Below, in pieces: positions 11,148 to 49,265 of a stretch of 64,000 nucleotides of DNA. The position numbers and the translations under genes are program-made. Origin of the DNA: an uncultured Vicinamibacteraceae bacterium (GTDB taxonomy: Bacteria > Acidobacteriota > Vicinamibacteria > Vicinamibacterales > UBA8438). The DNA is taken from NCBI GenBank assembly GCA_964342185.1, contig CAYFER010000005.1:18316-82315 (forward strand), in the 5' to 3' direction. Below the pieces are notes generated by a model, which had not been told where the DNA came from, searched no databases, and saw nothing but the letters and a program-made list of their open reading frames with translations. Each line of letters starts with the position of its first letter. The stretch's first letter is position 1.

Positions 11148-12431
11148 TCATAGGCCGCCTGGACCGCGACCTACGTTCAGCAGATTCCCTGGGTCGAACC
11201 GTTGTTTCACCGCTTGCATCACCCGCATACCATCACCAATCTGCCCCCACACGCCAACCTCTTGGCGGAGCTTGGCGTCACCCTGGCGGATGACGGCCGA
11301 ACCACGCCCGACCGGCAGTCGCTCACGAAGTTGGTTGATTAACCGGGCTTGCAAAGAAAACGAGCCGTCTAGACGAACGTCAACAATACCAAGACCCGCC
11401 CGGCCGGATACGGACATACTTATTCCCTGCGAGGTCGCCTCTCTACGTAACCAGACTAATGTCGAGACCAACTCAGCTGGCACACAAACCAACTTGAGAA
11501 GTGTGCCGTCAATTGACGACGACCAATGTGTTGAGTGCTGTTCCCAACGAGTAGTCTCTTCCTCAGCCGACAAGATTCGGCTTGCCCCGCGTGCCCCCAA
11601 GAGAGCACAGACCTCTGTCGCTTGCTGAGCGACGGCCTCTTCAACTGATTCGAAGCGAACCAGCAACTGCGTCGACGTCACAGTTGATGCAAGTTCAAGT
11701 GCCGTCGGCGTTAGAGACGAGGTTGATAGGTCGCTCACTACCTCCCCAGACAGGTCAAGCGAGTCAAGAGCAAACTCAACTGTGCGAGAGGCTGGAGCCA
11801 GCGGCGCCAACTTGAATGTCGCCGTTATAATTACGCCGATACACCCGAACGAACCAGTTAACAACCGAGATAAATCGTATCCAGCAACGTTTTTTACGAC
11901 AATACCGCCTGCCTTGGCCACTGCTCCATCAATACGTGCAATCGTTAAACCAATGATGGAATCACGGACTGACCCGTAACCGTGTCGACGAGGGCCGCTG
12001 TCATTCGTTGCCACAATGCCACCAATCGTTGCGCGGTCGGCCCACGGTGGATCCCAAGGCAACCACTGACGCTGTTCTGTTAGTGTCTTATTCACCGCTG
12101 ACAACGGCGCCCCACACTCAACCGTGGTAGTAAGGTCGCCGTGCCGGTGGTCTATCACCGATCGTAGACGAGTCGTTGAGAGAAGTAGGTCGACGGGACC
12201 GCTAGGCGCTCCCCACGTTAGCTTGGTGCCGCCTCCAACCACTGACACCGTGAGACCCTCAGACGACGCCCATCCAAGGATTTCGGCAATTTGGTCAGCA
12301 GTGGATGGCTCAACTAGTAGACGCGGGCGCACACCGTCAAACACATCATCGTCAGTTGACACACGGGCCGAGTCTCCGCCTGATCGACTTCTGAGCTCGG
12401 ATAAAAGCGTGTCGATGGATACCACCGTCAT
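11148..12431 (-). CDS. glcE: glycolate oxidase FAD-binding subunit GlcE-like
   Basis: FAD_binding_4-type fold (VVGGGTKL.WG, ...KNVAGYDL.RL..GS.G). The start is placed at the internal ATG (MTVVSIDTLL), which forms an ATGA overlap with the glcD stop at 12431-12433. The ORF-track start at 12500 would overlap glcD by 70 nt. Confidence 0.7.
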   Translation of the reverse strand: MTVVSIDTLLSELRSRSGGDSARVSTDDDVFDGVRPRLLVEPSTADQIAEILGWASSEGLTVSVVGGGTKLTWGAPSGPVDLLLSTTRLRSVIDHRHGDLTTTVECGAPLSAVNKTLTEQRQWLPWDPPWADRATIGGIVATNDSGPRRHGYGSVRDSIIGLTIARIDGAVAKAGGIVVKNVAGYDLSRLLTGSFGCIGVIITATFKLAPLAPASRTVEFALDSLDLSGEVVSDLSTSSLTPTALELASTVTSTQLLVRFESVEEAVAQQATEVCALLGARGASRILSAEEETTRWEQHSTHWSSSIDGTLLKLVCVPAELVSTLVWLRREATSQGISMSVSGRAGLGIVDVRLDGSFSLQARLINQLRERLPVGRGSAVIRQGDAKLRQEVGVWGQIGDGMRVMQAVKQRFDPGNLLNVGRGPGGL

Positions 12432-14008
12432 CACAGGCGATCCGCCACCCCTAAAGTCTCGGCCGGGTGGCGACGATAGGGTCCCGGCACTTCGCCACAC
12501 AGCCGAGGTGTTGGGAACACTTTGCCCGGGTTACAGATGAAATCAGGGTCAAACGCACAGCGAACGAGTTGCATCGTGTCAAGATCACTGTCGGTAAACA
12601 TCTTGGGCATGTGCTTAGCTTTGTCGGCACCAACACCATGCTCACCCGTAATCGACCCACCGACATCAAGACAGTAAGTCAAGATCTCGGATGCAACATC
12701 TTGGGCCAGATCCGCCTGGCCCTCGATCCGATCGTCATAACAAATGAGCGGGTGAAGGTTGCCATCGCCGGCATGAAACACATTCCCGATTTTCAATCCT
12801 GACCTCTTGGCCAGTGACGCAATCCGATTTAACACTTCGGGAAGTTTCGTCCTCGGAATCACGCCATCTTGGACGTAGTAACTCGGTGACACTCGGCCCA
12901 TCGCAGCAAAAGCTGCCTTCCGCCCTTGCCAAAATCTTGCCCGCTGCTCGTCGGTCTTGGCCACCTGGATCTCTCTGGCGTTGGCTTCAGCACAGACTTT
13001 CTCAACGTGTACGAAGAGCGCGGCAACATCTGCCTCGGCACCATCAAGTTCGACAATGAGGACGGCTTCAGTTTTCGGAAAATTTGGGTGAACGGCCTCT
13101 TCAGCAGCTTCGATAGTCAGTCGGTCCATCATCTCAATCGCCGCCGGAATAATTCCAGCACCGATAATTCCAGAAACTGCGTTTCCGGCCGCTCCAGTTG
13201 AGTCAAATGCAGCCAGCAAAGTCTTAACAGCTGCCGGCTTTCGTAAAAGATTTAACGTAACTTTCGTAACAACTGCGAGCGTCCCTTCTGACCCGACCAG
13301 TACGCCCAGAATGTCAAGACCCGGAGCATCGCGTGCCGGACCACCTAAATGAACGATTTCCCCATCTGGTAACACTGCTTCAACACCAAGCACATGATGG
13401 ACCGTGAATCCGTACTTTAAGCAATGGGCGCCACCTGAATTCTCAGCAAGATTCCCGCCGATCGAACAAATGACCTGGCTCGACGGATCGGGCGCATAGT
13501 AATAACCATCACTAGCCACAGCCTTGCTAACATCAAGGTTCATGATGCCTGGTTCAACCGTAATACATCGATTCGGCAGATCGATTTCACAGATGCGATT
13601 CATCCTTGTCAGAACAATTAGGACGCCGTCTGGATGCGGCATGGCTCCCCCAGAAAGCCCCGTGCCTTGGCCTCGCGCTACAAACGGCACGCCCGACTCG
13701 TGGCACAGACGCACTACCGCTTGCACCTGCAGAGTGGATGTCGGCAAAACGGCAACGCCTGGCTTCGACCGAAGCTTAACCAAGCCATCCGTTTCATAAG
13801 TCAACAACTCGCCGGCATCGCAGACAAGACCATCGGAACCAACGATGACCTCAAGCGCATCGAGAAAATCTTTCTCCAATTTATCTACCCAATCCGTTGT
13901 CCTTGAAACAACTCTCGTTACGGCCTCGAATACTGGTCGATAACACGAGACAGCGCTCGCTGACAGACTTGACAGAATCCAACCGGGTTTCGTGTAAACA
14001 TAATGCAA
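12431..14008 (-). CDS. glcD: glycolate oxidase subunit GlcD (FAD-linked oxidase)
   Basis: Contains VVRLCHESGVPFVARGQGTGLSGGA, KNSAGY-like NLAENSGGAHCLKYG, GSITGEHGVG and RCAFDP....NPGKV. The ATG at 14008 overlaps the upstream M64 gene by about 90 nt. A TTG at 13879 (LEKDFLDALEVIVG) is a plausible alternative start. Confidence 0.85.
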   Translation of the reverse strand: MHYVYTKPGWILSSLSASAVSCYRPVFEAVTRVVSRTTDWVDKLEKDFLDALEVIVGSDGLVCDAGELLTYETDGLVKLRSKPGVAVLPTSTLQVQAVVRLCHESGVPFVARGQGTGLSGGAMPHPDGVLIVLTRMNRICEIDLPNRCITVEPGIMNLDVSKAVASDGYYYAPDPSSQVICSIGGNLAENSGGAHCLKYGFTVHHVLGVEAVLPDGEIVHLGGPARDAPGLDILGVLVGSEGTLAVVTKVTLNLLRKPAAVKTLLAAFDSTGAAGNAVSGIIGAGIIPAAIEMMDRLTIEAAEEAVHPNFPKTEAVLIVELDGAEADVAALFVHVEKVCAEANAREIQVAKTDEQRARFWQGRKAAFAAMGRVSPSYYVQDGVIPRTKLPEVLNRIASLAKRSGLKIGNVFHAGDGNLHPLICYDDRIEGQADLAQDVASEILTYCLDVGGSITGEHGVGADKAKHMPKMFTDSDLDTMQLVRCAFDPDFICNPGKVFPTPRLCGEVPGPYRRHPAETLGVADRL

Positions 14009-15492
14009 TCTATTTCAGAACGATACAGACCAAGCGCTTCATAAGAAGCGCCCTCGAAGGCCCCTACTCTGTCTGCGTATTCCATAGAACCAAGAGCCGT
14101 AGTTTCGTTCTCCATTTGTTCGGTAAATAAACGATCGATCTCGGTTTCTGCGACTCCTTGCCGGCGCAATTCTCGGCGTTCAGCTTGAGCCGCCGAACTC
14201 GCCGACTCGAACTCGTTTTTGTCCCATGGAGTCGGCAATGGGGTGTCAGCTGAAACTAAATCACGCCATTTCAGATTCGCCGGATCGTGAAGCGCGGTCA
14301 CATTGGGCTCCCAAGGTTCTGGATGATACGCGTTACCGGTCTCGTAGGCGACATCAGATGTGTAGTACTCATCAGCGAGTCCAGCAAAATGATGTCCGAA
14401 CTCGTGAACAAAGACATATTCCGAAAACCCTGTATCGGCCGCCACAGTGGCCTGAAAATTGAAAATTCCTCCACCACCATACTGTTCCTCATTGACCACG
14501 ATCTCAAGAAACTCATAAGGGGCAGCGGACGCGGCATCTCTTAACGCCCGATTATCGTAAGTGAGCAAGTAACGTTCAGAATCGAAGATGTTGTACTCAG
14601 CCGATAAAGGACTTCGACGAAACTCCATGGCCCTGGGCCGAGAAACACCAGACTCTGATGAAGGCAAGTCTAAGCCCCACACATTGAAATCGGAGCGCCG
14701 GCTCCTAAACGGCTCCTCATCAAACAACGCATTAACCAGACGCTCTGCGTCCATATGAAACTTCGGAATTTCTTCGGCCGTATATCCCTCGCTGATAACA
14801 AGAAGGTCAACCTTGTCAGACGGTGGCCCGCTGTCGATAATCGGCCAAACCTCTCCCGCCGAAACTCGGTCCGTTGGGTTGACAAAGCGGGACTCTGGAT
14901 CGATTACAGTCGACCAAATTTCGTGAAAACTGTTCTCGCTATCTCGAACTTTCAGCACGACCTGTACTGGCCGCTTCGGCCACGGAAAGCGAAGTGACTC
15001 GTGGAAGGTCGCATGAACCTGCCGCGCAGCAGGTGTTGTCTCCCACTCCCCATAAATAGATGCAAAGCCCCTTGAATAGATCACACGATTCGTCGGCCGG
15101 TCGATGACTTCAAACAGATACTTCCCCAGATTCAGATGATCGATAAGCCTGGTACGACTGCCAGCCCAGGGTCCATCAGACACGATTTGGTCAAGGGCCA
15201 AGACCTCCGTACCAAGACCGCCGGAATGAAAATAATCAACCCGCATAGTCTTATCGACGAAGTTCTCGTCGAAAACCTTGAGTTCATCGACTGGCTGATG
15301 AGCCTGGAGTGCCCAACTGAGCCCTCCCAATATACGAGTAGTTTTACTTTGAGTGAGACCGACCTTGGCGAACTGAAACACCCAGCCTGCACTAACAGCC
15401 AGAATGGCTGCCACTAAGATTCGCGCCACCCTCGTCCATATGTCTTGCATAAGACATATATTACCGGTAGGCGAGCGCGAAGAATTCCGCAT
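13918..15492 (-). CDS. M64 family (IgA-peptidase-like) zinc metallopeptidase, secreted or membrane-anchored
   Basis: 524 aa. N-terminal hydrophobic segment, and the zinc motif VFVHEFGHHFAGLADEYY that I recognise as the M64 signature (HEFGHxFxGLADEY). Confidence 0.75.
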   Translation of the reverse strand: MRNSSRSPTGNICLMQDIWTRVARILVAAILAVSAGWVFQFAKVGLTQSKTTRILGGLSWALQAHQPVDELKVFDENFVDKTMRVDYFHSGGLGTEVLALDQIVSDGPWAGSRTRLIDHLNLGKYLFEVIDRPTNRVIYSRGFASIYGEWETTPAARQVHATFHESLRFPWPKRPVQVVLKVRDSENSFHEIWSTVIDPESRFVNPTDRVSAGEVWPIIDSGPPSDKVDLLVISEGYTAEEIPKFHMDAERLVNALFDEEPFRSRRSDFNVWGLDLPSSESGVSRPRAMEFRRSPLSAEYNIFDSERYLLTYDNRALRDAASAAPYEFLEIVVNEEQYGGGGIFNFQATVAADTGFSEYVFVHEFGHHFAGLADEYYTSDVAYETGNAYHPEPWEPNVTALHDPANLKWRDLVSADTPLPTPWDKNEFESASSAAQAERRELRRQGVAETEIDRLFTEQMENETTALGSMEYADRVGAFEGASYEALGLYRSEIDCIMFTRNPVGFCQVCQRALSRVIDQYSRP

Positions 15493-18533: not shown

Positions 18534-19547
18534 ATGGCAATTACATGTAGCGGAATTCAGCGCGTGTTAACAGCAGTTACCATCATGCTGTTCAGTGCTG
18601 CCTTAGTCGAAACCCAACAATCTACTCAGGACGCGCCGACGACACCAAGAACCCCGTGGGGAGACCCAGATCTTCAGGGAGTTTGGACGGGTTCCACCGT
18701 TACTCAGCTTGAACGGCCGAGAGAATACACAGCAAAGGTCTTTCTCACAGAAGAAGAAGCCGCGGCACTTGAGCGAGAGGCAATGGCACAGCAATTTGCT
18801 CCTCGACCCGTCGACCCGAACACGGGAACACCACTGACAGAGGGTGGTGTTGGCGACTACAACCCCGAGTGGTTTGATTCAGGGACAGCTGTCCTGCCAT
18901 CGCGGCGAACCTCCCTGATCGTGTCTCCGATTAATGGGCGCATTCCATACAAGCCAGAAACGTTGGAAACCGAACGACCGTACGGAATCGGCCCCTACAA
19001 CTCTTACCTCGATCTCGATACCGGAGAACGTTGTCTTGGGGACGGCGTGGTAGAGATGATTTGGCTCGGTTACAACCCGAACCACCAGATTGTGCAAACA
19101 GCTGACCATGTAGTGATTCTCCATGAGATGTGGCGTCAACGGCGCATTATTCCTCTAGACGACAGTCCACATATTGCACCTGGAATCCGACAGTGGAATG
19201 GAGACCTGCGAGGCCGTTGGGACGGAGACACCCTTGTCGTCGAATCAACGAATTTCGTCGACAGATGGCAAGACTATCGCTTTAACCCAAACCATCTCTG
19301 GCGAGCCCCATCTGCAACACTGCAGCTAATGGAATCCTTCAAGCGGCTCGATGCCACAACGATGTTGTACCGGGTGACCATCACCGATCCTGAACGATTC
19401 AGAAGACCTTGGACGATAGAGACATACCTAACAACTGACCAAGCGTCCCGGGGCGTTACGACAGGTCCGATCTATGAATACGCTTGCCACGAAGGAAACT
19501 ACGGCGCACCTAATATGCTTCGCGGTGCACGAGTCACAGACAAGTAA
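18534..19547 (+). CDS. secreted protein, unnamed paralogous family (copy 1): PRTPWGDPDLQGVW ... WNGDLRGRWDGDTLVVESTNF ... YEYACHEGNY
   Basis: The start is moved to ATG 18534, preceded by AAGGAGGT with a 5-nt spacer, which yields the signal peptide MAITCSGIQRVLTAVTIMLFSAALVETQQ. Motifs are shared with 19642-20592, 20751-22001, 35644-36675 and 40040-40978. Confidence 0.7.
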   Translation: MAITCSGIQRVLTAVTIMLFSAALVETQQSTQDAPTTPRTPWGDPDLQGVWTGSTVTQLERPREYTAKVFLTEEEAAALEREAMAQQFAPRPVDPNTGTPLTEGGVGDYNPEWFDSGTAVLPSRRTSLIVSPINGRIPYKPETLETERPYGIGPYNSYLDLDTGERCLGDGVVEMIWLGYNPNHQIVQTADHVVILHEMWRQRRIIPLDDSPHIAPGIRQWNGDLRGRWDGDTLVVESTNFVDRWQDYRFNPNHLWRAPSATLQLMESFKRLDATTMLYRVTITDPERFRRPWTIETYLTTDQASRGVTTGPIYEYACHEGNYGAPNMLRGARVTDK

Positions 19548-19641
19548 GGTTGACTCGTTTCGGGCCTTGCCGACCGTAGAGGTTAATGGAAAGAGTCGCT
19601 AAACCTCCTACACTCAGCAACCATCACTCTTACAACCAATT

Positions 19642-20592
19642 TCACCGCACATACAGTTGGTCAGGGGGCGGCACCTTACGGGTAATGTCGACTATCAAAG
19701 TTTCACCTTCCCAGCGTCTGACCAGCTGCTCCTTACGTAAATGTCCAAATTGTAATTCTTCGACAAACTCTTGGCAGCGGTACTCCAACAACTGGATATC
19801 CGGCTCCAGGCGACGGTACAGCGGCATCGATATCTTCCACGGACGGGTGAATACCTCAGGGTCATTTATGGTGACCTCATAGTGGATGGCATCAGGTGTG
19901 AGCGGAGTAAACTTCTCGACTAAATGCAATTGGTTGCTGTGGAAGTTACCCGCCCGATCAAACCAGGACTGGTCGTTGAAATCCGTCACTTCGACGACGA
20001 GCGTATCACCTTCCCATCGGCCAACAGAGTGCCCCATCCATTTGTAATCGGGAGGGCCTTCCACTTCGTCAAGATGAATAACGCGGGCGGCGTTTGAAAA
20101 GGTAAACGTCATATAAATCTTGTTAGTACTCTGAGTAATCTGAAACGGGTAGGGCATATACATAGCCCTGGGAACCCCTGGAAGGAAGCAGTCGATCTCG
20201 GGATCTCGGTCGAGCCAGTTCTCAGCATTCTCCTGCTTCTGGGCAGCAGCTTCTGGAGTGTAGGGAATCTGTCCGTCGCCGTCGACCACGCCCAGAGAAC
20301 CCGGCACCCCTCCCGCCGCACCAAATGGAAGCGAAGGTGCCGCCGGCACTTGGACGTACGGCAAATCGTAGGCTCCTTGCTGTACCACTGCACCGGCGCG
20401 CGCGGCATGGGCTTGAAGATCCCAATGAGCTTCGTTGTTGGCCTGCCAGATACCACTAAAATTTGGATGACCCTCGGCGGTGCGTGCGGCGCGAACGGTT
20501 TGCCCTGAAGGACTTATAACCGATGCGGAAATAATGGCACCCACTGCCGCCGCGGTAAATACGAGTATAGAAACGGATGTCCGGTTTCTCAT
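19642..20592 (-). CDS. secreted protein, same paralogous family (copy 2, divergent)
   Basis: 316 aa. Signal peptide, then RTAEGHPNFSGIWQ, DCFLPG, GHSVGRWEGDTLVVEVTDF, FTRPWK and LLEYRCQEF (in place of CHEGN). A second WEGETLIVD motif sits at the extreme C-terminus. Confidence 0.65.
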   Translation of the reverse strand: MRNRTSVSILVFTAAAVGAIISASVISPSGQTVRAARTAEGHPNFSGIWQANNEAHWDLQAHAARAGAVVQQGAYDLPYVQVPAAPSLPFGAAGGVPGSLGVVDGDGQIPYTPEAAAQKQENAENWLDRDPEIDCFLPGVPRAMYMPYPFQITQSTNKIYMTFTFSNAARVIHLDEVEGPPDYKWMGHSVGRWEGDTLVVEVTDFNDQSWFDRAGNFHSNQLHLVEKFTPLTPDAIHYEVTINDPEVFTRPWKISMPLYRRLEPDIQLLEYRCQEFVEELQFGHLRKEQLVRRWEGETLIVDITRKVPPPDQLYVR

Positions 20593-20750
20593 TTGATCGG
20601 TTTCCTTTCACGACCATGATTTCTATTTTCGCTGCCCAAAAGAGAGTCTTGAGGGCAAACATAACGCAGTCAAGTCCACGCCTCTATGGTCGTGGGACAA
20701 GGGCAGACAACCCTGTGGCAGCTATCCTGATTCTTTCTGCTTCCGTTTGA

Positions 20751-22001
20751 CTACCGCAAGGCCAGTGGATCGAGGCCCTCGGTGTTGAGTCCACATGTAC
20801 CAATGCACAGAGACGCAGGATGGCGACCGCTGCCCTGCTCGTAGGCTTGCTCGACTGCACGCGCCCCGGCCAACGCCCCTACCATGCCGAAATTGCCCTC
20901 ATGACAACGGGGTTCCGTATAGATGCGATTTGCCTCATTGCTCTGAAGTTTGAACTCTTGGATGACAGTCCACGGTCGGGTCCAGACTGTCGGATCCTCA
21001 AAAGTGGAAACAACCTCAAGCGTATCCGGACCGGTACGAGTCCAACGCTCGACAATATGCAGGTTCTCACGGGACCCCTGGAAATCCGTCTTTGGGGTAA
21101 AGTTAGTTACGTTGACGACCAGTGTCTCACCCTCCCATTGGCTGCGTGAATCTCCCCACCACTGACGGAGATTTGAAGGTAAATGCGGTGCCGTGGTAAC
21201 AGGGATGTTTCGCGAAAAACCTTGCCCTTGAGCGGCATCGTAGTACACCGTCACAACGCTTGGTGATTGCACAATCCGACGGTACACCCCCACAAAACCA
21301 CCACGAATGGAAGGCAGATTACCAGTCATACAGCGTTCACTTAAACCGCGGTCTTCTGGTCCGTCTGCCCGGTTGATGGGGCCAACACCCGCAGATGGGT
21401 ACTCAGGAGGGTCCTCCAAAAGCCGTGGCGACGGTGGCCCGTACTGTCCACCTTGGCAGGCAAATTCGTTGTCCCGGCAAACTTGAGTATTCTGCAAGAG
21501 AGCTAACTGGTACTGCCGGTACGCAGCCTGTCTCTCCAGCGCCTCCGGTGTGTAGGAAGGCATCTTGCCATCCGGAGGGTCGATAATCATCGCGGTGCGC
21601 TTCCCCGTGGGCCTTTGTGAGGTGTAGACCGCATTGTAGGCGCCGGTGACATCAGCCTCAGTTCCAGGCGCAGCCCGCACATGGTTACCAAAGACCGATT
21701 TGTCGGCTCGCGCGGTATCAAGCTCGGCAACTTGCTCGTCAGTGTAGAACTCCGTGGTGACTCCCGCGGGGCGTTCCAATGGAACGAGCAATTCAACACT
21801 CCAAATACCCTGGAGGTCTGGCTCACCCCATGGCGTCCTAGGCACGGAAGCTGTGGATGACGCCGGAGCGACGTTCTGCGCGGTAGCCGGACGAAGGCCA
21901 GCTACCCTGGTTTCTGCTCGGCCATCGACATTCACCATGGCCCCCAACCCAAGTGCGACCACGGACCCAATGCTGAGTCCTCGGACTAGTGAATAGCCCA
22001 C
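20751..22001 (-). CDS. secreted protein, same paralogous family (copy 3)
   Basis: 416 aa. GTG start preceded by AGGAGG with a 6-nt spacer. Contains VPRTPWGEPDLQGIWS, SERCMTGN, WWGDSRSQWEGETLVVNVTNF, WTRPWT and TEPRCHEGNFGMVGALAGARA. Confidence 0.7.
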   Translation of the reverse strand: MGYSLVRGLSIGSVVALGLGAMVNVDGRAETRVAGLRPATAQNVAPASSTASVPRTPWGEPDLQGIWSVELLVPLERPAGVTTEFYTDEQVAELDTARADKSVFGNHVRAAPGTEADVTGAYNAVYTSQRPTGKRTAMIIDPPDGKMPSYTPEALERQAAYRQYQLALLQNTQVCRDNEFACQGGQYGPPSPRLLEDPPEYPSAGVGPINRADGPEDRGLSERCMTGNLPSIRGGFVGVYRRIVQSPSVVTVYYDAAQGQGFSRNIPVTTAPHLPSNLRQWWGDSRSQWEGETLVVNVTNFTPKTDFQGSRENLHIVERWTRTGPDTLEVVSTFEDPTVWTRPWTVIQEFKLQSNEANRIYTEPRCHEGNFGMVGALAGARAVEQAYEQGSGRHPASLCIGTCGLNTEGLDPLALR

Positions 22002-22094: not shown

Positions 22095-22170
22095 TGGCTC
22101 CTCAGGTTGGACTCGAACCAACAACCCTCCGGTTAACAGCCGGATGCTCTGCCAATTGAGCTACTGAGGA
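22095..22170 (-). tRNA. tRNA-Asn (GTT), CCA encoded
   Basis: Minus strand TCCTCAGTAGCTCAATTGGCAGAGCATCCGGCTGTTAACCGGAGGGTTGTTGGTTCGAGTCCAACCTGAGGAGCCA. Anticodon loop CTGTTAA. Confidence 0.9.
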
Positions 22171-22990: not shown

Positions 22991-24712
22991 ATGCAGGGTG
23001 ACCTCAACCGCCGTCCAACGCTTAGCAGCATTGTTACGGTACTGCTCGCACTCTCCCTCTTCACATACTTCCTCCGTCGGGCGGGTATCGACGATGTCGG
23101 AGAAGGAATTCGCCGTCTTGGCGGGGTGTTCATCATCGTCGTATTGCTCGGTGGGGTCCGGTTCGTGATAAGGGCGGCAGCATGGATTAAGTGTCTGGAC
23201 GGTCCTCACCGTTTAACGGTTACAGAAGTTTTCAAGGCCGTTGTTGTCGGTGATTCGCTAGGGAACTTAACCCCGCTCAGCATTCTGGTGAGCGAACCGG
23301 CAAAAGGGATGTTTCTGAGGCACCGTGAACCCCTCGACAGAACCTTGCCGGCACTAGCTATCGAAAACCTTTTCTACACCTTAAGCGCCATCTTGGTAAT
23401 TGGTGGCGGCATGATAGCCACGCTTCTGATATTTCAAACACCGACCCAGTTGGGACCGCCCACAGTGATATTGGTTCTCACACTTGCTGGTCTCGTTGTC
23501 GCAGTTCATTGGATCATCTGGAAAAATTTTCGCATTGGAAGCAGCGTGCTCAACTGGTTTAAACGTCGTGGCCTCACTACCGAGATATTGGAGCAGTTTT
23601 CTGCGCGCGTCCGCAACATTGAGGAAACCGTTTATGCACTCTATCCGAGGCACCGTAATCAACTGGTGTCTCTGGCATTTCTAGAGTTCTCGTTCCACTT
23701 GGTCGCAATCCTCGAAGTGTTTCTGATCTTGTCAGTGGTGAGTCCCGTACCAACAAACTTGTTTCACGCGTTTATCTTTGAAGCGACCAATCGATTCATC
23801 TCTTTTGCGTTTCGATTCGTACCGCTCCGCGTCGGTGTTGACGAGGCAGGAAGCGGAATGTTTGCCGAACTTCTTGCTGTAGGAACAGCGACTGGGGTGA
23901 CGTTGGCCTTGATTCGTAAGGGCCGAATTCTAGTTTGGATAGTTATCGGCGTTTTATTCTTGTTGCGACACGGTCTCTCTTTGAAACAAATATTGAAAAC
24001 AGGATCACACAAGGTGGCAGTGGTAATCATGGCCCGATCACCCGTATCGGGTGCCCCTCCAAAGACGCGTCTGAGTGAAATCATTCCCAGCGAAAACGAT
24101 CGGCGCCGGTTGTACTCGGCCTTTCTGCGTGACACCGTTCAAGCATGCCGGACGATAGACGGAGTATCAATCCGGCTGGCGTACACACCAGAAAGCGATA
24201 GGGACGACTTTGCTGCAATGCCAATCGGACTAGCCGACGATGAACTACTTGCGCAGAGAGGCTATGACTTGGGCAAACGAGAAGAAGGTGTGTTTGAAGA
24301 CCTGTTTGCGGCTGGTTTCACAAAAATCGTAATGGTCGGATCCGACCTGCCTACCCTTCCAATCGACTACATAGAACAAGCGGTCAGCGCAGTTACGCCA
24401 AAAACAATCGTTCTTGGTCCAGCCCTAGACGGTGGCTACTACCTGATTGCCCTCTCCAGTGACACCAATAGAAGCGTGCCAGATTTATTCACCGGCATAA
24501 GATGGAGTAGCGCTCATACACTAGCCGACACCATACTTGCTGCCGAACAATCGGGATTAGATGTCAAGCTACTTCCGCAGTGGTACGACGTCGATGACAA
24601 GAATGGTCTAGAGCGGCTGCGGTCTGACGTTAAGGCACTACCAATTCAAGCACAGGCACCAACAACCACGAAGATATTGAGGGAAATATTTAAAGAGACC
24701 ACTTCGCCGTAA
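22991..24712 (+). CDS. fusion protein: lysylphosphatidylglycerol-synthase-TM-like (flippase-like, UPF0104) membrane domain plus a DUF2064/TIGR04282-like nucleotidyl/glycosyltransferase domain
   Basis: 573 aa. The N-terminal ~330 aa is polytopic with the typical GDSLGNLTP... pattern. The C-terminal ~230 aa has VAVVIMARSPVSGAPPKTRL, ...IVMVGSDLPTLP and DGGYYLIAL, as in DUF2064 proteins. Confidence 0.65.
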   Translation: MQGDLNRRPTLSSIVTVLLALSLFTYFLRRAGIDDVGEGIRRLGGVFIIVVLLGGVRFVIRAAAWIKCLDGPHRLTVTEVFKAVVVGDSLGNLTPLSILVSEPAKGMFLRHREPLDRTLPALAIENLFYTLSAILVIGGGMIATLLIFQTPTQLGPPTVILVLTLAGLVVAVHWIIWKNFRIGSSVLNWFKRRGLTTEILEQFSARVRNIEETVYALYPRHRNQLVSLAFLEFSFHLVAILEVFLILSVVSPVPTNLFHAFIFEATNRFISFAFRFVPLRVGVDEAGSGMFAELLAVGTATGVTLALIRKGRILVWIVIGVLFLLRHGLSLKQILKTGSHKVAVVIMARSPVSGAPPKTRLSEIIPSENDRRRLYSAFLRDTVQACRTIDGVSIRLAYTPESDRDDFAAMPIGLADDELLAQRGYDLGKREEGVFEDLFAAGFTKIVMVGSDLPTLPIDYIEQAVSAVTPKTIVLGPALDGGYYLIALSSDTNRSVPDLFTGIRWSSAHTLADTILAAEQSGLDVKLLPQWYDVDDKNGLERLRSDVKALPIQAQAPTTTKILREIFKETTSP

Positions 24713-27474: not shown

Positions 27475-27599
27475 CGGGGCTCACCGCGACCCGGATAAAC
27501 CTGCGGCACATGTCAGTGACTACTTAGCGCTGCTGCCTTCCGGCCCTGACGCGGTTCGTAGGCTGAAATTGCACAGGATCCGAGCCGCGGGGCGACCCG
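27475..27599 (-). ncRNA. ffs: signal recognition particle RNA (small/4.5S-type SRP RNA)
   Basis: The minus strand contains ...CCGCGUCAGGGCCGGAAGGCAGCAGCGCUAAG..., which is the conserved domain IV motif with a GGAA tetraloop. The flanks pair over more than 19 bp (CCGCGGCUCGGAUCCUGUG with CGCAGG-UUU-AUCCGGGUCGCGG). Position upstream of dnaX-ybaB-recR is a common arrangement. The ends are approximate. Confidence 0.75.
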
Positions 27600-35643: not shown

Positions 35644-36675
35644 CTACCGTGCCTCAGCGATCTGTTCATCAAGGCGTGCTCCACCCAAAATACCAGGCAT
35701 CGAATAATTCCCTTCGTGGCATGCATACTCAAAAATTGGATCTTCTGTGCTCTTTAAGACCAGCATCACAGTCCAAGGCTTAGTCCAAGTATCCGAATCA
35801 TCGAGCGTTATCTCATGCTGGATGGTATCGGGTGCCACGCGGGTAAAACGCTCAACGAGACGCAATCCCGCAGAAGCACCACTATAGCGTGTCTCACCCG
35901 AATAATTTGTCGTCTCAACAACCAGAGTGTCGCCGTCCCAATGGCCACGCGAATCACCTGTCCACAATCGCACGCCATCATCAACATGGGGGCGCCCATC
36001 AAGCGGAATGACACGGGAGATGTGCCCCATCTCCTGAAGGATAGCTACGTGGTCTGGTGTTTGAAGAATCTGAAAGTAGCTGTTGTAACCAGCGCTCAAA
36101 CGGGGCGCCTCAAAGTGGAGACACCGGTCGCCAAGACTTCTATCTTCAGGCCCATCCGAGGGATGCTCCCGGGAATATTCACGCCTAGAGGAAGCGAGTG
36201 CTTCGGCGGCAGTGGTTAATGCCGGAATTCGACCATCCGGTGGATCGACAATGAGAGACGTGCGGTTATCAAGGTTGCGTTCGACTAGCCAGAAAGCGTT
36301 GTAGTTTCCGGTGACGACATCGAAATCGTTATACTCTGAATTGCCCAGCGCCTGCTGAATAAGACGGTCTCCCAACAAATCTCCAGCTTGTTCGTTGTTG
36401 CGAAATTCATTCACCTTCTGGGTCAATTCAGCAAGTTCTTCGTCTGACAACACCGTCTTACCCGCCAGTTGCTCTGGACGCTGCAGAGGCGTTGCACTGT
36501 TGTTAGCCCAGATACCCTGAAGGTCAGGCTGTCCATCCGCTGTGCGGGGGACCGCCCAATCGCTTTCCTGTCCCAACGCCGAGAACGGCACCGTCGCACC
36601 AATCACAAGTATCATCAGCAAAACTGCTATGCGTCGATCTATCATTACACTCCTCCTGCATGCCGGATAAGACAT
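35644..36675 (-). CDS. secreted protein, same paralogous family (copy 4)
   Basis: 343 aa. Signal peptide, then VPRTADGQPDLQGIWANNSATPLQRP, GDRCLHF, WTGDSRGHWDGDTLVVETTNY, WTKPWT and FEYACHEGNYSMPGILGGARL. Confidence 0.7.
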   Translation of the reverse strand: MSYPACRRSVMIDRRIAVLLMILVIGATVPFSALGQESDWAVPRTADGQPDLQGIWANNSATPLQRPEQLAGKTVLSDEELAELTQKVNEFRNNEQAGDLLGDRLIQQALGNSEYNDFDVVTGNYNAFWLVERNLDNRTSLIVDPPDGRIPALTTAAEALASSRREYSREHPSDGPEDRSLGDRCLHFEAPRLSAGYNSYFQILQTPDHVAILQEMGHISRVIPLDGRPHVDDGVRLWTGDSRGHWDGDTLVVETTNYSGETRYSGASAGLRLVERFTRVAPDTIQHEITLDDSDTWTKPWTVMLVLKSTEDPIFEYACHEGNYSMPGILGGARLDEQIAEAR

Positions 36676-36703: not shown

Positions 36704-37482
36704 CTACAGTTGCTCGCGCTCCAAAAGTGCCGCCACTTCAAAAAAATCCTGGACCTCCCAGTCTGGAGCGTAGCCATGATGTTCTAACGGCTCATCCGCG
36801 CGATTAACCCAAATAACCTTTAGCCCGGCCACCTTGGCACCCACAATATCAAACTGCCCGCGACAAACGAATATAACCTCACTCACGTTAAGGCCTAGTT
36901 TGGCAATTGACTTGAGATAGATTCGGGATGCACTTTGTTCTTGCCCCATAGATCTGCGGTGAGATAAACATCAAAATCAAACCCCATATCGGCAAAACGA
37001 TCAACATTGCCAACTCGAACCATCTCACTGTCACCGTTCGACAAGGGACCCATAATCGGATAACCTACGGCCCGAATTCTCTTGAGCCCCTCAATGACAT
37101 CAGGATAGGGGTCGAGTTCGTGCCACGCCTGCATAAGTTCGTCTTCATCACCCTTGGTCAGTTCAACCTTGTGAAAACTAGCGGCTGTTCGAAGTGCTCG
37201 ACGAGTAACAAATGAAAACGGTTCAAACCCTTTATCGACCAGTGTGTTGTACATGATGTAGACCAACTGTTTGGACCGCCAGAGCTCGTTAAAAGTCGTT
37301 GGGTTAGCCACGATACCTTTTCGGCTAAACACTCTGGAAACCGCTAGCTCGACGCCCTCCCAAGAAACAAGCGTCCCGTAGGAATCGAACAGCACAGCCC
37401 GCGACCGTTCCTGAGCAGGAAGCTTCTGATTAACCGGCGTTAAAGCCAGAATGATAATGACGAGAAAGATACGGTGTCTCAC
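36704..37482 (-). pseudogene. HAD-superfamily hydrolase (haloacid dehalogenase type II-like) split by a 1-nt frameshift near 36911-36930
   Basis: The N-terminal part (track ORF 36895..37521) carries motif I, FDSYGTLV. The C-terminal part (36704..36949) is in another frame and carries ...VIFVCRGQFDIVGAKVAGLKVIWVNR (motif IV region). The frames meet at HPES / IYLKSIAKLG. The likely start is GTG 37482, which forms a GTGA overlap with the upstream HupE-like stop. Confidence 0.6.
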
Positions 37483-38582
37483 GACAGCCCCCAAGGGAAG
37501 AAAACACGTTGCACAAACCAAATCCCGCCGACCACGATGACGATGACCGAACCAACCGTTGCCAGACGTTGGCCAGCCAATTCGCTACGCGCCCGTAATG
37601 CCACCAACGCCGCCGCTGCGGCGAGGACAACCGCTAGTTGGCCAATTTCAACACCCACATTGAAAGAGACGAGTGACCAAGCTACGTCCCGATTCGGTAA
37701 ATCCATCGCTCGAAGAATTCCAGCAAACCCAAACCCATGGATCAATCCGAAGATAAAAGCGATCCACGCACGCATGTCTCGGCCACCACCAACCAATAGA
37801 TTATCGGCACCGACCCAGACGATACTGAGCGCGATCGCCGGCTCAACAATATTCGAGGGCGGGCTGAAAACATTTAGTACTGATAAAGAAAGGGTGACAC
37901 TGTGGGCCAGCGTGAAAGCGGTCACGACAATCAGTAACTGCCGAACACTACCACCCAGCAACAACAGCCCAACCAGAAACAGCAGATGATCGGCTCCCGT
38001 CAAAATGTGTTCTACGCCCAGTGGTAAAAACCGCTGCACCACGGCGCGTGTACCCTGCCAGGTTCCCAAGAAATACTCCGTCCTTGGATGATTCAAATCA
38101 AGGATGGCCTGATTTCTTAGTTCACCTGCTTCGTAAACATTGAGAAACGTCTGGTGCCGTGGGTCGTACGGAAACAGGAGAGCATCAATCCCAATTACGC
38201 CGGGCGTCTGATTAAAAACATAGTGAAATCGAAGTCGCACCGATTGACGATCGGGCAGCACTTCAGGAGTAAGCCAGTTAGGTTTAAATACTCGGTCTCC
38301 AGTCGACAGACGCAGGCGTCCCTCCACCAAATCAGCCATTGCGTCGGCTTGTTCCACAACAAATGCTTGGTCGAGTAATTGCTCTGGTGGATCAATCTCG
38401 AGGTCATGCGCTAGATCGATAATATGCACGACCAAGGTAGCCTCGCCGCCGCCAGTCTCTCCAAGGCGAAGATCAAGGTAGCTGAAAGGGATCGGATGTG
38501 CTTGAGCGATCCCTGCGGCAGCTAGACTACTGATTAGCGCCAGTAGCGTAAGACGAATTCCAAAAATCCAGCGTGCAGTCAT
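37479..38582 (-). CDS. HupE/UreJ family membrane protein with a ~190-aa N-terminal periplasmic extension
   Basis: 367 aa. Signal peptide, a soluble domain, then GVEHILTGADHLLFLVGLLLL, TAFTLAHSVTLS and FGLIHGFGFAG, typical of HupE/UreJ (Ni/Co transporter-like) proteins. Confidence 0.7.
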   Translation of the reverse strand: MTARWIFGIRLTLLALISSLAAAGIAQAHPIPFSYLDLRLGETGGGEATLVVHIIDLAHDLEIDPPEQLLDQAFVVEQADAMADLVEGRLRLSTGDRVFKPNWLTPEVLPDRQSVRLRFHYVFNQTPGVIGIDALLFPYDPRHQTFLNVYEAGELRNQAILDLNHPRTEYFLGTWQGTRAVVQRFLPLGVEHILTGADHLLFLVGLLLLGGSVRQLLIVVTAFTLAHSVTLSLSVLNVFSPPSNIVEPAIALSIVWVGADNLLVGGGRDMRAWIAFIFGLIHGFGFAGILRAMDLPNRDVAWSLVSFNVGVEIGQLAVVLAAAAALVALRARSELAGQRLATVGSVIVIVVGGIWFVQRVFFPWGLS

Positions 38583-38594
38583 GCACGCCTCACG

Positions 38595-39503
38595 CTACTC
38601 TTCGATTTCGTCAAAAACAACCTGCACGTAGGCCTGAAGCCGTTCGGCCGGTGGCTTGCGATACCCCATGAACCTCGGCGGAACTTGCCAGACGCGTGCA
38701 AATTCTTCTGCTGAAAAACCATCCCTTTTGGCCGATCGGGCCGCACTAACAAATGCTCCTACAAAAGTCGCATATTCGCGAAGATCGTCTCGCATCATCG
38801 GGGTACTGTGGCCCGTGATGATTGTATCGATTTCAGGAACACCCGCGTACGCATTCCAAAGAGTGACCGGGTAATCAACACCACTCCCACCGTTGTTCGC
38901 ATCCATGATTGGAACTTGCTTACCTGGGAATACATCGCCGGCGTGCATGACACGCAGCGAAGGAAAAACCACCCACGCGTCGCCGCCCGTATGCGCGCGA
39001 CCAAAGTAATGAAGATCAACCTGGTCGGCACCGCTCCCTAGGGTCAAGCTATCGGTAAACGTCTGGGTCGGCATTCCCTGTCCACCACTTGTGTCAAACA
39101 CATTTGGAGGCTCTCGACCCAAGCCAGTAACCGGGTTCCATTCACCCATCAACTGTTCGGTGTTTTCGTGAGTCACTACACTGACAGTCGTCGGAAAATC
39201 AACGTTGCCACTCACATGGTCGAAGTGCGTATGAGTATTGATAATCGTCGTTACCGGGTTAGAGGTTAGTTCACCGATCTTGTCGAGAAGCGGCTGACCC
39301 CAACCAGCCAGCTTGGTATCAACGAGCACCACACCGTCACTGGTCACGAAGGCTGCCGAGTTCCCGCCGCCGCCCCGAAGAACGTAGAGGTTATCCCTCA
39401 GCTGGTCGACCTCAACTACCTGTTCACCCTGCTGTGCCGTGCCAACCGCTAGTGATAGCGAACAAACGACTAACAACACTCCAAAAATCACCGTTCTTTT
39501 CAT
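38595..39503 (-). CDS. secreted MBL-fold metallo-hydrolase (copy A)
   Basis: 302 aa. Signal peptide, then INTHTHFDHVSGN (HxHxDH) and ...GRAHTGGDAWVVFP, TIITGHST. Close paralogue of 52279..53199. Confidence 0.8.
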   Translation of the reverse strand: MKRTVIFGVLLVVCSLSLAVGTAQQGEQVVEVDQLRDNLYVLRGGGGNSAAFVTSDGVVLVDTKLAGWGQPLLDKIGELTSNPVTTIINTHTHFDHVSGNVDFPTTVSVVTHENTEQLMGEWNPVTGLGREPPNVFDTSGGQGMPTQTFTDSLTLGSGADQVDLHYFGRAHTGGDAWVVFPSLRVMHAGDVFPGKQVPIMDANNGGSGVDYPVTLWNAYAGVPEIDTIITGHSTPMMRDDLREYATFVGAFVSAARSAKRDGFSAEEFARVWQVPPRFMGYRKPPAERLQAYVQVVFDEIEE

Positions 39504-40039
39504 TACCCTACCTCCCTAGCCACGCTTGCCAGAACCCAGCAATCCTAACGCAAAAACGACAGGGCTGCTGCCAGTTTTTTAATCAACCCTAACGAATCAG
39601 TCGACCGAGGAAAAGATCGGCGCGAAACCCAATGACTCTATTCTGGCAACCGATATGCGATGAGTGCACCAGGGAAGCCGCCGCCGCTGATAGCCATGAC
39701 GATATACTGGCTGACTGTAAACAGGTCCGGTCGAGTTTAGAGAGCAAGGAAACGTTCAGCTTTTCGACGAATTGACGGTAATCTTGCACCCATCGTGCCG
39801 AAGTAACCAGACCCTCTGTCACGCCCAATTTTCAATTAATTCAAAAGTCGCGTGACTTCTTCAAAAAGTGGACGGTCCCACAGGTTAGTACTGCCGACCT
39901 CATCATCGCACGTCACCTATCACTCGACAACAGGTTAAGGGTCTGTCTGCCCCACAGAGATGGGACATGCTTGCGGAACATTTGAAAGAGATCTATCGTG
40001 GCGAGTACCAGATCAAGAAATCATTGCAGGAGGTAGTAA

Positions 40040-40978
40040 ATGCGCACTCGCGTGGCCGGGCTGCTTGTCGTTTTGACCCTCGTCGTTTTACTGGTGCCAT
40101 CGCCAACCGTTGCTCAGTCCGCCAACGCACCACGGACCCCTTGGGGAGACCCTGATCTCGAAGGGATCTGGTCGTATGCGAGCTTGACACCCCTTCAAAG
40201 ACCAGCTGACTTGAGCAATCGTGAATTCTTCACGCCTGAGGAGGCTGCAAGTCGCAACGCCGCGACAAGCGTAGATCGACCTCCCCAACCCGGCAGTGTT
40301 GGAAACTACAATGCATTATGGTTCGATCGTGGGACAATCGACCCCAGTCTGCGAACGTCGCTTATTATCGACCCCCCGAACGGTCGACTACCTCTGACCC
40401 AGGAAACACAAGCACGGATCGCTTCCGAGCGGGAATACCGAGATAGTCATCCAGCCGATTCGTGGCTGGACCGCAGCCCGTGGGATCGATGCATCACGTA
40501 TCACGGTGTACCTCCGGTCTCAACCGGCTACAACAATACCTATCACATCGTGCAGTCACCCGGATACGTTGCCATTTTGGTGGAGAACATTCACGATGTT
40601 CGGATCATTCCTCTTGACGGACAACCACAGCTGGAGTCTTCAATTCGACAGTGGAACGGTGATTCCCGAGGTCATTGGGAAGGTGACACACTGGTTGTTA
40701 AAACCACAAACTATAGTACTCAAACGCGCCTGCGTTTTCCGTCGTCACCAGAGACAACTGCGGTGGAACGTTTCACGCGAATCAATGCCGATCTAATCGA
40801 CTATCAATTTACGGTGGAAGATCCGTCAGTCTATACAAGCGCATGGACTGCTGTTCGACCGATGCCGAGAATCCCAGACTATCGGATTTACGAGTACTCG
40901 TGTCACGAAGGCAACTACGCAATGTCAAACATTCTGAGCGGTGAACGACAACGTGAAAAAGCGACAGCGAGAGACTAA
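40040..40978 (+). CDS. secreted protein, same paralogous family (copy 5)
   Basis: 312 aa. GGAGG with a 7-nt spacer before the ATG. Signal peptide, then APRTPWGDPDLEGIWSYASLTPLQRP, WDRCITY, WNGDSRGHWEGDTLVVKTTNY and YEYSCHEGNYAMSNILSGER. Confidence 0.7.
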   Translation: MRTRVAGLLVVLTLVVLLVPSPTVAQSANAPRTPWGDPDLEGIWSYASLTPLQRPADLSNREFFTPEEAASRNAATSVDRPPQPGSVGNYNALWFDRGTIDPSLRTSLIIDPPNGRLPLTQETQARIASEREYRDSHPADSWLDRSPWDRCITYHGVPPVSTGYNNTYHIVQSPGYVAILVENIHDVRIIPLDGQPQLESSIRQWNGDSRGHWEGDTLVVKTTNYSTQTRLRFPSSPETTAVERFTRINADLIDYQFTVEDPSVYTSAWTAVRPMPRIPDYRIYEYSCHEGNYAMSNILSGERQREKATARD

Positions 40979-41133: not shown

Positions 41134-41907
41134 GTGACGCTCACGTTTCGGCGAATCCTGTTGGTCCTTGTGCCTGTAGTCTGCGCCAATTTAGCGGTGC
41201 TCGCGCAACCGCGGTCCAGTGGTTGGGGGCAGCCAGCTCTTCCGTACGATGGTCGATTCACGTTCGTCCGCCTTCGATGGACCTCCGGAACTTACGGTGC
41301 TCCGGTGGCCGGCCAAGGTTTCAATTTCTGGCTGCATGAATTTCCCCGTGCCGAGCAAAACCTGATGGCCGTACTCGGCGATCTCACCCTCGTCAACACC
41401 CGAACAAACGGGAGCCTCATCCTCACACTTGATGACCCCGACCTCTTCAAATACCCAATTGTCATGATGTGGGAACCCGGTTTTTGGACGATGACGGACC
41501 ACGAAGCTGGACGCCTTCGCGAATACATATTGAAGGGAGGATTGGTCATTTTTGATGACTTCGAGCGTGAGCAGTGGGACAATTTCGCCGCCCAAATGGA
41601 CCGAGTCATTCCAAACGCTGATTGGATTGCCCTGGAGGAGAATCACCCCATATTTAATTCATTCTTTCGTATCGATCAAATTGACACTCCACACCCGATT
41701 AACCACCACCTGTTCGGATACAAGCCTGAATATATTGGATTATTTGAAGATAACAATTCCGACAAACGCCTGATGGCGATCGTCAATTACAATACCAACC
41801 TTGCTGAATATTGGCAGATGGCCGGAACGGGGTTCTTCCCAATCGAATCCGAAAACATCGGGTTCAGGCTTGGAATTAATTACATGTTGTACGGCATGAC
41901 CCACTAA
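41134..41907 (+). CDS. DUF4159 domain-containing protein (secreted)
   Basis: 257 aa, GTG start, signal peptide. Contains FTFVRLRW..., DFPRAEQNLM, LDDPDLFKYPIVMMWEPG, ...LREYILKGGLVIFDDF and HPIF, a pattern I associate with DUF4159. Confidence 0.6.
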   Translation: MTLTFRRILLVLVPVVCANLAVLAQPRSSGWGQPALPYDGRFTFVRLRWTSGTYGAPVAGQGFNFWLHEFPRAEQNLMAVLGDLTLVNTRTNGSLILTLDDPDLFKYPIVMMWEPGFWTMTDHEAGRLREYILKGGLVIFDDFEREQWDNFAAQMDRVIPNADWIALEENHPIFNSFFRIDQIDTPHPINHHLFGYKPEYIGLFEDNNSDKRLMAIVNYNTNLAEYWQMAGTGFFPIESENIGFRLGINYMLYGMTH

Positions 41908-42264
41908 ATTGGCCCGTAGTTTGAACAACCGCGAATAGTTACAGGCTCTTGGGCAGAAGAATCTGTCATTATTCTTTAAAGAGACATTCTGACTTCAAAA
42001 ATCATCATTATAAAATAACCAAATTTTTGGATATACATAAGTATCTTACTTATCAACAACTTATATGTTTGTGACTCATACAAAAACCAAATAATCGTTT
42101 TTGTGCCAATTTATTTTGTCTTTATCTGTCTAGAATGTTCCGTATATTCCTTAATTTTCCATAAAAAACCAAGCTGGCCCGCTTTTTGCATGTTATCGTG
42201 TCTGCTGGTGTGGGCGAACCAACCGCCAAGCGGATTCTAAAGAGCTTGAGTGGTGAGTTACTAT

Positions 42265-42294
42265 TTGACATCGTGTGCTTACACAGGCTATATA
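42265..42294 (+). promoter_or_regulatory. possible sigma70-type promoter upstream of the TonB-dependent receptor gene
   Basis: TTGACA (42265-42270), an 18-nt spacer, then TATATA (42289-42294). This would give a ~105-nt leader. Sequence match only. Confidence 0.3.
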
Positions 42295-42408
42295 GTGCGT
42301 TACTGCGTCTTTCGCCATCGTAAAATTGTTTTTTAGTTAATTTTAGATGGGGTCATTCACAGTGTTTCCGGGGGCCGGTGCCTCCGAAAATGAATGAAGG
42401 AGACAAAC

Positions 42409-47168: not shown

Positions 47169-47386
47169 ACGACACCAAAAAGACTTCTCGTCGATGCTAA
47201 CACGGTCTGATGTCTCTCTGTGTAATGCAAAGCGATCAGACAGATACTTCCTTTACAGGCGACTCACTGGTGCGATACCTGTTTTTTGGGGAATACGACG
47301 ATCCAAGTCAGGACACTATCGGGCGCGACCGAATTCGAGAGAAAAGGAAGCGCGATTCAAGGATTCTGTTGCGCTGCCACCAATCC

Positions 47387-49198: not shown

Positions 49199-49265
49199 AC
49201 TCCACTCTGGACGACCGCCAACTGGAGACTTAACCGTCTGGCGGATGGTACCACGAGACTAGACA

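Follow-up and report, generated by a model that had tools for sequence, protein, structure and literature searches.

Calycins form a class of antiparallel beta-barrel proteins that includes the lipocalins, FABP, CRBP, CRABP and the tardigrade SAHS proteins, and such barrels mostly serve as binding proteins. The intracellular lipid-binding proteins among them (FABP/CRBP) are cytosolic, about 130 residues long, and built from 10 strands with a helix-turn-helix lid. ZinT/YodA is a periplasmic calycin-like protein that binds metal and has a His-rich N-terminus. XoxJ and MxaJ are also periplasmic and have the solute-binding-protein fold. The same fold is found in PqqT (PMC12124388). Here, we describe a family of exported proteins that is represented five times in a 64,000-nucleotide stretch of DNA (the window) from an uncultured Vicinamibacteraceae bacterium of the phylum Acidobacteriota (contig CAYFER010000005.1, positions 18,316 to 82,315 of the forward strand). 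Gene neighbourhoods supply the main new evidence on these proteins, and they point to an unstudied cell-envelope system. We propose that the family consists of periplasmic ligand-binding or ligand-processing barrels working with a second small exported protein, DUF6152 (PF19649), and with quinoproteins. We place the probability of this reading at roughly 0.45, a little short of even.

The five copies, together with an extension peculiar to the second, are arranged as follows.

18534..19547, + strand: copy 1 (c1), 337 amino acids, CHEGN type; an open reading frame with a family-profile score of 354 bits.
19642..20592, - strand: copy 2 (c2), 316 amino acids, divergent short subtype (HPNFSGIW, EYRCQEF); second gene of the c3-to-c2 operon.
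19645..19728, - strand: C-terminal extension of c2 (residues 289-316), a repeat of the central strand motif (RWEGETLIVD).
20751..22001, - strand: copy 3 (c3), 416 amino acids, long subtype with two extra Cys pairs; first gene of the c3-to-c2 operon.
35644..36675, - strand: copy 4 (c4), 343 amino acids, CHEGN type.
40040..40978, + strand: copy 5 (c5), 312 amino acids, canonical CHEGN type; the modelled protein.

A first-pass annotation, made from the letters alone, had placed five paralogues at these positions and on these strands. The open reading frames bear this out, and a family profile run against all six-frame open reading frames of the window recovers exactly these five and no sixth. Pairwise identity among the copies is 28-44% over their full length, and even the most divergent pair, c2 and c3, is matched by BLASTP at E = 9e-15. 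By these measures, the similarity of the five copies far exceeds chance. Their five-way alignment has 34 invariant columns and contains the motifs that had been quoted for them: PRTPWGxPDLxGxW...LxRP, (D/E)RC, QWxGDSRGxWxGDTLVVxxTN, RPWT and EYxCHEGN...LxGxR. It also contains the divergent form of c2, with its second WEGETLIVD near the C-terminus.

The proteins had further been called exported, and the sequences agree. Each copy has an N-terminal hydrophobic segment, with a peak 12-residue hydropathy of 2.1-3.6, and the conserved block begins 31-54 residues from the N-terminus. Good Shine-Dalgarno sequences stand ahead of the proposed starts, including the short start of c1, whose ATG at 18534 is preferred over a longer open reading frame from GTG 18399 because the ribosome-binding site AAGGAGGTG precedes it. 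None of the five copies has a lipobox, and the stretch that links the hydrophobic segment to the conserved mature block contains no Cys in any of them; we therefore rejected the possibility that they are lipoproteins.

The family is real, very large and, as far as sequence, structure and literature searches reach, undescribed. Scans of all five copies against Pfam-A and NCBIfam gave no family match at E <= 1, in keeping with the earlier view that the family is unnamed; the only hit of these scans, to BRISC (E = 0.13), was dismissed as chance. The five copies and two family alignments found no meaningful sequence or profile match in the PDB. Relatives appear in homologue listings and NCBI records as unnamed or hypothetical proteins, and our literature search found no description of the family motifs or of the partner families. 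The hypothetical proteins described in two studies on pyrroloquinoline quinone (PQQ) and lanthanides are smaller (about 110-130 amino acids) and do not belong here.

The size of the family was taken from an exhaustive profile search of 1.84 billion representatives, with clusters drawn at 50% identity. This search, of the kind that the first-pass annotation had recommended, found 28,057 clusters at E <= 1e-3, 15,120 at 1e-10 and 2,812 at 1e-30. Homologue searches with c5 and c2 gave at least 7994 clusters of the c5 subtype and at least 8000 of the c2 subtype at 90% identity. Among genome loci, the hosts are mostly Vicinamibacterales, Bryobacterales and Terriglobia (Acidobacteriota), joined by metagenome-assembled genomes of Gammaproteobacteria and Alphaproteobacteria and one labelled Acidimicrobiia. 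Distant members occur on replicons of cultured Novosphingobium, Sphingobium, Croceibacterium and Sinorhizobium.

The suggestion of a lineage-specific expansion fails against this distribution of at least 28,057 clusters over several phyla. Rather, the five copies are old subtypes and not the product of a recent burst, because each has orthologues elsewhere that are closer to it than its neighbours in the window. Identity to orthologues is 60-98% for c5, 70-97% for c2, 96% for c4 (in L041; L numbers denote loci fetched for comparison), 54-55% for the best matches of c1 (L016, L022, L025) and about 56% for those of c3. L041 is a Vicinamibacteraceae metagenome contig whose DNA is 90-94% identical to the window. 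The position of c4 is syntenic in L080. Clusters of this kind are typical, as two or more family copies are present in 44 of 79 loci of about 17 kb.

The strongest neighbourhood signal is that of DUF6152. Of the 65 DUF6152 copies in the 159 fetched loci, 62 are no more than 1 kb away from a family gene. DUF6152 is encoded directly 3' of 33 of 113 family genes in the set gathered with c2 as query, and of 22 of 161 in the set gathered with c5. When the search was instead centred on DUF6152 in plasmids of cultured bacteria (Novosphingobium, Sphingobium, Croceibacterium, Sinorhizobium), seven of nine copies abutted a family gene. DUF6152 is a near-obligate neighbour of family genes, across phyla. 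Two examples illustrate its position.

L082, 9049-9489: DUF6152.
L167, 8612-8995: DUF6152; about 65 further copies are present in the fetched loci.

DUF6152 is itself a small exported protein, with a mature length of about 100 residues. Its signal peptide ends in Ala and is followed by an invariant His-His; H26, H27 and H54 are invariant in the alignment, as is an N-P-H motif. The pattern is suggestive of an N-terminal metal site. Sequence and profile searches of the PDB found no relative of DUF6152, and a literature search found no publication on it. Family genes with and without an adjacent DUF6152 do not differ in their N-terminal motif or in the motif after the second Cys.

Family genes also keep company with one another. 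For 27 of 34 evaluable c2-type genes, another family gene is adjacent on the same strand, and the c3 and c2 gene pair recurs in L081-L086, L089, L092 and L094. The c3-to-c2 arrangement is a conserved operon, which makes a c3/c2 hetero-oligomer plausible. In c2-type operons, the gene order is c3-like (417 amino acids), c2-type (321 amino acids), then DUF6152 (146 amino acids). DUF6152 is present in the c3-to-c2 operons of L082-L086, L089, L092 and L094, and missing from the closer relative L081. Bryobacterales carry longer arrays, in the order c2-type, family gene, DUF6152, family gene, DUF6152. In the window, a tRNA gene at 22098-22170 (-) ends 97 bp before the c3 start, so that the operon lies directly downstream of a tRNA.

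Outside the signal peptide, c1, c2, c4 and c5 have two Cys each and c3 has six; of the two additional pairs of c3, one (C175/C182) lies in an insertion of 40 residues and the other (C399/C403) at the C-terminus. The same pattern is found in the 417-residue orthologue of L083, which likewise sits upstream of c2-type genes. In c2, the C-terminal extension matches the central strand of c3 (E = 7e-4), and AlphaFold2 models it as a beta-hairpin at low confidence. It is kept in close c2 orthologues (at least 70% identity) and absent from more distant c2-type genes. We speculate that this extension might act as a strand donor to the c3 partner.

A second recurrent class of neighbour consists of PQQ-dehydrogenase homologues (PF01011), which are present in 31-40 of 79 c5-type loci, depending on the threshold. 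In a distance-density analysis, they reach 10.9 per 100 kb at distances of up to 1 kb from family genes, compared with about 2.4 at 2-8 kb, a difference of about 4.5-fold that corresponds to 24 observed against about 5 expected. An independent set of c2-type metagenome loci gave 3.7 versus 1.1 per 100 kb. Vicinamibacterales, Bryobacterales and Gammaproteobacteria all show the association, and spacing is operon-like (4-33 bp) in several loci. The family gene and the dehydrogenase are separated by a cytochrome c gene in L006 and L046. These homologues and DUF6152 are the recurrent partners that the first-pass annotation had overlooked.

Among Vicinamibacterales, c5 orthologues of 68-71% identity stand directly upstream of genes of the 'acido-empty-quinoprotein group A'. 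Six genes next to c5 orthologues score above the NCBIfam cutoff for this group (TIGR04528), and one scores above that of TIGR03075. The TIGR04528-type neighbours, downstream of c5 orthologues in L006, L011, L012, L013, L015 and L020, all carry the motif HDTHDWDSA. We tentatively take this motif to hold the D-x-D at the position that tells lanthanide-type from calcium-type methanol dehydrogenases.

The window itself carries the deletion scar of a PQQ-dehydrogenase gene beside c5.

39641..39712, - strand: remnant of a PQQ-dependent dehydrogenase, its last 24 codons (tblastn, 87.5% identity, E = 1.5e-7).

Relative to L041, 1907 bp have been lost between a metallo-beta-lactamase-fold gene and c5, with flanking DNA 90-94% identical and a junction at 39707-39713 that has a 7-bp overlap. 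In L041, the PQQ-dehydrogenase gene is intact and divergently transcribed from c5. L080, which is more distantly related, carries another family copy at the deleted spot. The surrounding order is HupE/UreJ and the metallo-beta-lactamase-fold gene (together at 37479-39503, -), this variable slot, c5, then DUF4159 and a CarboxypepD_reg-type outer-membrane barrel (together at 41134-45426, +). It is kept from HupE/UreJ to the outer-membrane barrel in L080 and, as far as the contig reaches, in L041. The metallo-beta-lactamase-fold gene scores 55.6 bits with TIGR04559 ('quinoprotein relay system zinc metallohydrolase 2'), a weak resemblance that falls below the cutoff of 280.

Structure prediction places the family in a known fold class. 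We modelled c5 with AlphaFold2 from a 64-sequence alignment and c2 independently. The c5 model has a mean predicted local distance difference test score (pLDDT) of 76.9, a predicted template modelling (TM) score of 0.76 and pLDDT values of about 88-97 in the barrel blocks; the c2 model reaches a pLDDT of 65.8 and has the same strand order. In the c5 model, a short N-terminal strand (42-46) bearing G-x-W is followed by a mostly helical insertion of about 120 residues (47-165) that holds D-R-C, then by eight antiparallel strands at high confidence (166-277), and finally by a lower-confidence C-terminal segment with E-Y-x-C-H-E-G-N. A comparison of both models with the PDB by Foldseek, a check that had been proposed for remote folds, returned calycin-type barrels only (CRBP/CRABP/FABP, tardigrade SAHS, UnaG, streptavidin and nitrophorins), with E of about 1e-3, probability of 0.99-1.0 and target-normalised TM scores of 0.42-0.55. 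With moderate confidence, the predicted core is a calycin-like (FABP/lipocalin-like) antiparallel beta-barrel with a large insertion.

Conservation was scored over 150 diverse representatives, in c5 numbering and with a threshold of at least 85%. In the first half of the protein, T33, G36, P38, D39, G42, W44, P51, R54, P55, E68, S107, P112, G115, P118, R150 and C151 pass. They are followed in the second half by Q172, E182, R188, G207, G211, W213, G215, T217-V220, E243, R244, Y255, T258 and D261, and in the C-terminal part by W269, E285, C288, H289, E290, N292, L299 and R303. Individual values are 100% for C151, 99% for R188, 97% for G42, 95% for C288, 92% for R244, 91% for H289 and 87% for W44; G42 and W44, which form the N-terminal G-x-W, are invariant in c1-c5. 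W44, C151, R188, G207, W213, E243, D261, W269, E285 and C288 are constant over both subtypes and an aligned homologue from Novosphingobium humi. By conservation, R188 and R244 are candidates for the late-strand Arg/Lys that packs on the G-x-W Trp in calycins.

The two conserved Cys residues had been read as either a disulfide or a metal or cofactor site at CHEGN. The first part of that suggestion is supported. A disulfide is likely because Cys residues are even in number in every mature copy and two of them, C151 and C288, are nearly invariant, and it probably ties the C-terminal E-x-x-C to the (D/E)-R-C of the helical insertion. The second part does not hold as a general feature. The His of CHEGN is replaced by Q in c2, by I, V or N in other c2-type members and by L in a Novosphingobium homologue, and so cannot be a universal ligand. 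Two redox classes were also rejected: cytochrome c because CXXCH is absent from all five copies, and cupredoxins because the His...Cys...His...Met set is absent, a single His (H289) is conserved, and none are among the fold matches listed.

The reading that we favour would run as follows. The five genes would encode Sec-exported, non-lipoprotein periplasmic proteins of one family, each built as a barrel from the N-terminal G-x-W strand, the helical insertion of about 120 residues and eight further strands. Their periplasmic task would most likely be to bind a small molecule and possibly to convert it. Their usual module partner would be DUF6152, with its mature His-His and invariant NPH. The module would often support periplasmic oxidation by PQQ-type dehydrogenases, and in sphingomonads it would support TonB-dependent uptake. 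Subtypes may act in combination, as c3 with c2. From the gene neighbourhoods, we infer that the proteins are coupled, physically or functionally, with DUF6152 and with quinoproteins. The general idea of the first-pass annotation, that of extracytoplasmic substrate capture or processing, remains the best reading.

Several observations weigh against this proposal. The window has no DUF6152 by tblastn and no remnant of one downstream of c2, nor does it have an intact PQQ dehydrogenase, and most family genes elsewhere adjoin neither partner. A within-locus permutation of gene order is not significant for PQQ dehydrogenases (15 observed against 11.3 expected, p of about 0.11), and the claim of enrichment leans on the distance-density analysis for this reason; PQQ homologues also have a high background density. 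The structural matches are weak, with query-normalised TM scores of 0.22-0.27 over about 120 of 312 residues, and model confidence is low around CHEGN (pLDDT 54-61). Finally, the conserved charged residues (R54, R150, E182, R188, E243, R244, D261, E285, E290 and R303) are equally enzyme-like and carrier-like.

This last point bears on the best-placed alternative, that the barrel is a periplasmic enzyme. An Arg/Glu/Asp/His site would convert substrates or products of neighbouring oxidoreductases (aldehydes, lactones, or quinone- or catechol-type compounds), with paralogues differing in substrate. The conserved polar set is unusually large for 150 diverse representatives, and R188, E243, D261 and E285 are retained even in aligned sphingomonad homologues. 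Gene fusions point the same way. In L082-L085 (position 1-1541), two VOC/glyoxalase domains are fused into one 582-residue protein with a complete family domain, which begins exactly at PRTPWGEPDLQGVW, and another fusion includes a methyltransferase-like region. The neighbours include oxidoreductases as well, in the form of PQQ dehydrogenases and, around the Sphingobium module, of luciferase-like monooxygenases and a peroxiredoxin, which lie there with sulfonate-utilisation genes. However, calycin-type barrels are mostly binding proteins, no enzyme family or structure was matched, and the CHEGN His is not universal. The invariant residues could all be structural, as the calycin Trp/Arg signature, a D-P turn and the surroundings of the disulfide. 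We consider an enzymatic role unlikely. A further fusion joins the family to a squalene-hopene-cyclase-like repeat region.

A second alternative is that the family and DUF6152 form a cofactor-loading system, in which bacteria without PQQ synthesis of their own would capture imported PQQ and/or metal in the periplasm and pass it to apo-quinoproteins. The adjacency to quinoprotein homologues, six of them named 'acido-empty-quinoprotein group A' by NCBIfam, is consistent with this, as is the invariant N-terminal His-His of DUF6152. Conserved Arg and Trp would suit a stacked tricarboxylate quinone. Vicinamibacteria have been reported with the PQQ importer PqqU and without PQQ biosynthesis (PMC12124388), and the same paper cites PqqT, a periplasmic protein that binds PQQ but differs in fold. 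Yet many divergent paralogues per genome and hetero-operons exceed the need for one carrier, and most family genes are not beside quinoproteins. In the loci examined, sphingomonad modules lie beside TonB receptors and monooxygenases, without a PQQ enzyme, and His ligands suit Cu, Zn or Ni rather than the Ca or lanthanide of PQQ enzymes. Cofactor loading is thus improbable in our estimation. Its boldest form would be a long shot: a phylum-spanning periplasmic delivery system that loads TonB-imported PQQ and/or metal into the 'empty' quinoproteins of non-PQQ-makers, with the barrel subtypes serving as hetero-oligomeric adaptors for each client enzyme.

A third possibility is that the proteins have a structural, protective or inhibitory role at the envelope, for instance like that of calycin-fold metalloprotease inhibitors, and that the neighbourhood signals reflect no more than the abundance of exported genes. 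The window copies do lie amid unrelated housekeeping genes (RecR, DnaX and LeuA-like) with a secreted M64 peptidase nearby, and the non-significant permutation for PQQ dehydrogenases fits such a role. It is nevertheless very unlikely, given that the adjacency of DUF6152 is near-exclusive and cross-phylum, that PQQ-dehydrogenase density drops sharply with distance from family genes, and that several loci have operon-like spacing. Least probable of the alternatives is a redox partner of periplasmic dehydrogenases acting through the Cys pair, a metal or haem: the adjacent PQQ dehydrogenases lack a cytochrome domain, the Cys pair and Cys-His dipeptide are conserved, and calycin-fold haem proteins exist (with nitrophorins low in the fold-match lists), but there is no CXXCH, the single conserved His is lost in c2-type members, neither cupredoxins nor cytochromes are among the fold matches listed, and the complete operons of L006 and L046 hold their own cytochrome c gene.

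Other neighbours had also been pointed out beside the family genes. A gene for a leucine-rich repeat protein next to the window copies is not a recurrent partner of family genes. The suggested link to TonB-dependent receptors is not supported in Acidobacteriota, where these receptors are weakly enriched near family genes and not significantly so by permutation (4 observed against 2.7 expected). In sphingomonads, TonB-dependent receptors do flank the module in all three annotated loci (Novosphingobium sp. PP1Y, Croceibacterium and Sphingobium). In Gammaproteobacteria and Acidobacteriota, planctomycete-type gene pairs, either PSCyt/DUF1549/DUF1553 with DUF1501 or PSD/PSCyt3 with HXXSHH, recur within a few kilobases of family genes (L019, L029, L066, L082-L086).

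Further features of the window are as follows.

11148-15492, - strand, and 45519-51278: further exported or envelope-type genes, namely the secreted M64 peptidase, two FAD-linked oxidase genes, an FG-GAP/ASPIC protein and large TPR proteins.
22991-24712, + strand: a 573-residue protein with a multi-pass membrane N-terminal half and a DUF2064/CofC-like, nucleotidyltransferase-type C-terminal half.
27486-27585, - strand: signal recognition particle RNA.
1262, 27891, 30818 and 55532: tRNA genes.

This family is among the larger exported bacterial families still without a name, model or structure. It abounds in Acidobacteriota, a phylum that dominates many soils and is difficult to cultivate, as well as in Proteobacteria of seas and lakes. 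Its partnership with DUF6152 and the enrichment of PQQ dehydrogenases around it, including the 'empty quinoprotein' group, offer an entry point to the periplasmic oxidative metabolism and cofactor supply of oligotrophs. Because the module also exists in cultured, genetically tractable sphingomonads, for example as WP_290010862.1 and WP_273620494.1, two plasmid genes of Novosphingobium humi, the question can be tested directly.

Among known systems, calycins (FABP/CRBP/CRABP, lipocalins and SAHS) come closest. The family is predicted to have the same antiparallel up-and-down beta-barrel of about 120 residues, it likewise has an N-terminal G-x-W strand, and calycins are the sole structural matches of both models. 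This kinship is one of fold class only, as there is no sequence or Pfam relationship. The family proteins are two to three times larger, with the helical insertion of about 120 residues following strand A and preceding the other barrel strands, and they are exported, with a conserved Cys pair and a C-terminal E-x-x-C-H-E-G-N. In particular, they are not intracellular lipid-binding proteins, from which their length of 312-416 amino acids, signal peptides and different insertion set them apart. Lipocalin_5 (PF13924) shares the general fold class and, in line with the predicted fold, is fused to the C-terminus of one member, P0336 (E = 2e-23), in which the family profile covers residues 6-306 only; the family domain itself has no PF13924 match.

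The likeness to XoxJ, MxaJ and PqqT is one of position, in that these too are exported proteins of about 30 kDa encoded beside PQQ dehydrogenases, sometimes with a cytochrome c gene. Membership of that group was rejected, as Pfam and NCBIfam gave no match to a solute-binding-protein family and the predicted fold is a barrel. ZinT/YodA combines a periplasmic calycin-like barrel with an N-terminal His motif, two features that are here split between the family and DUF6152. It differs in having no sequence match to the family, in not being among the fold matches listed, and in that the His-His here is on a separate protein. DUF6152 is a partner of the family and not a homologue, being a different small protein that is also exported and uncharacterised. 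Fitting no named family, these proteins are best described as a new family inside a known fold class, with a new two-gene module formed by the family and DUF6152.

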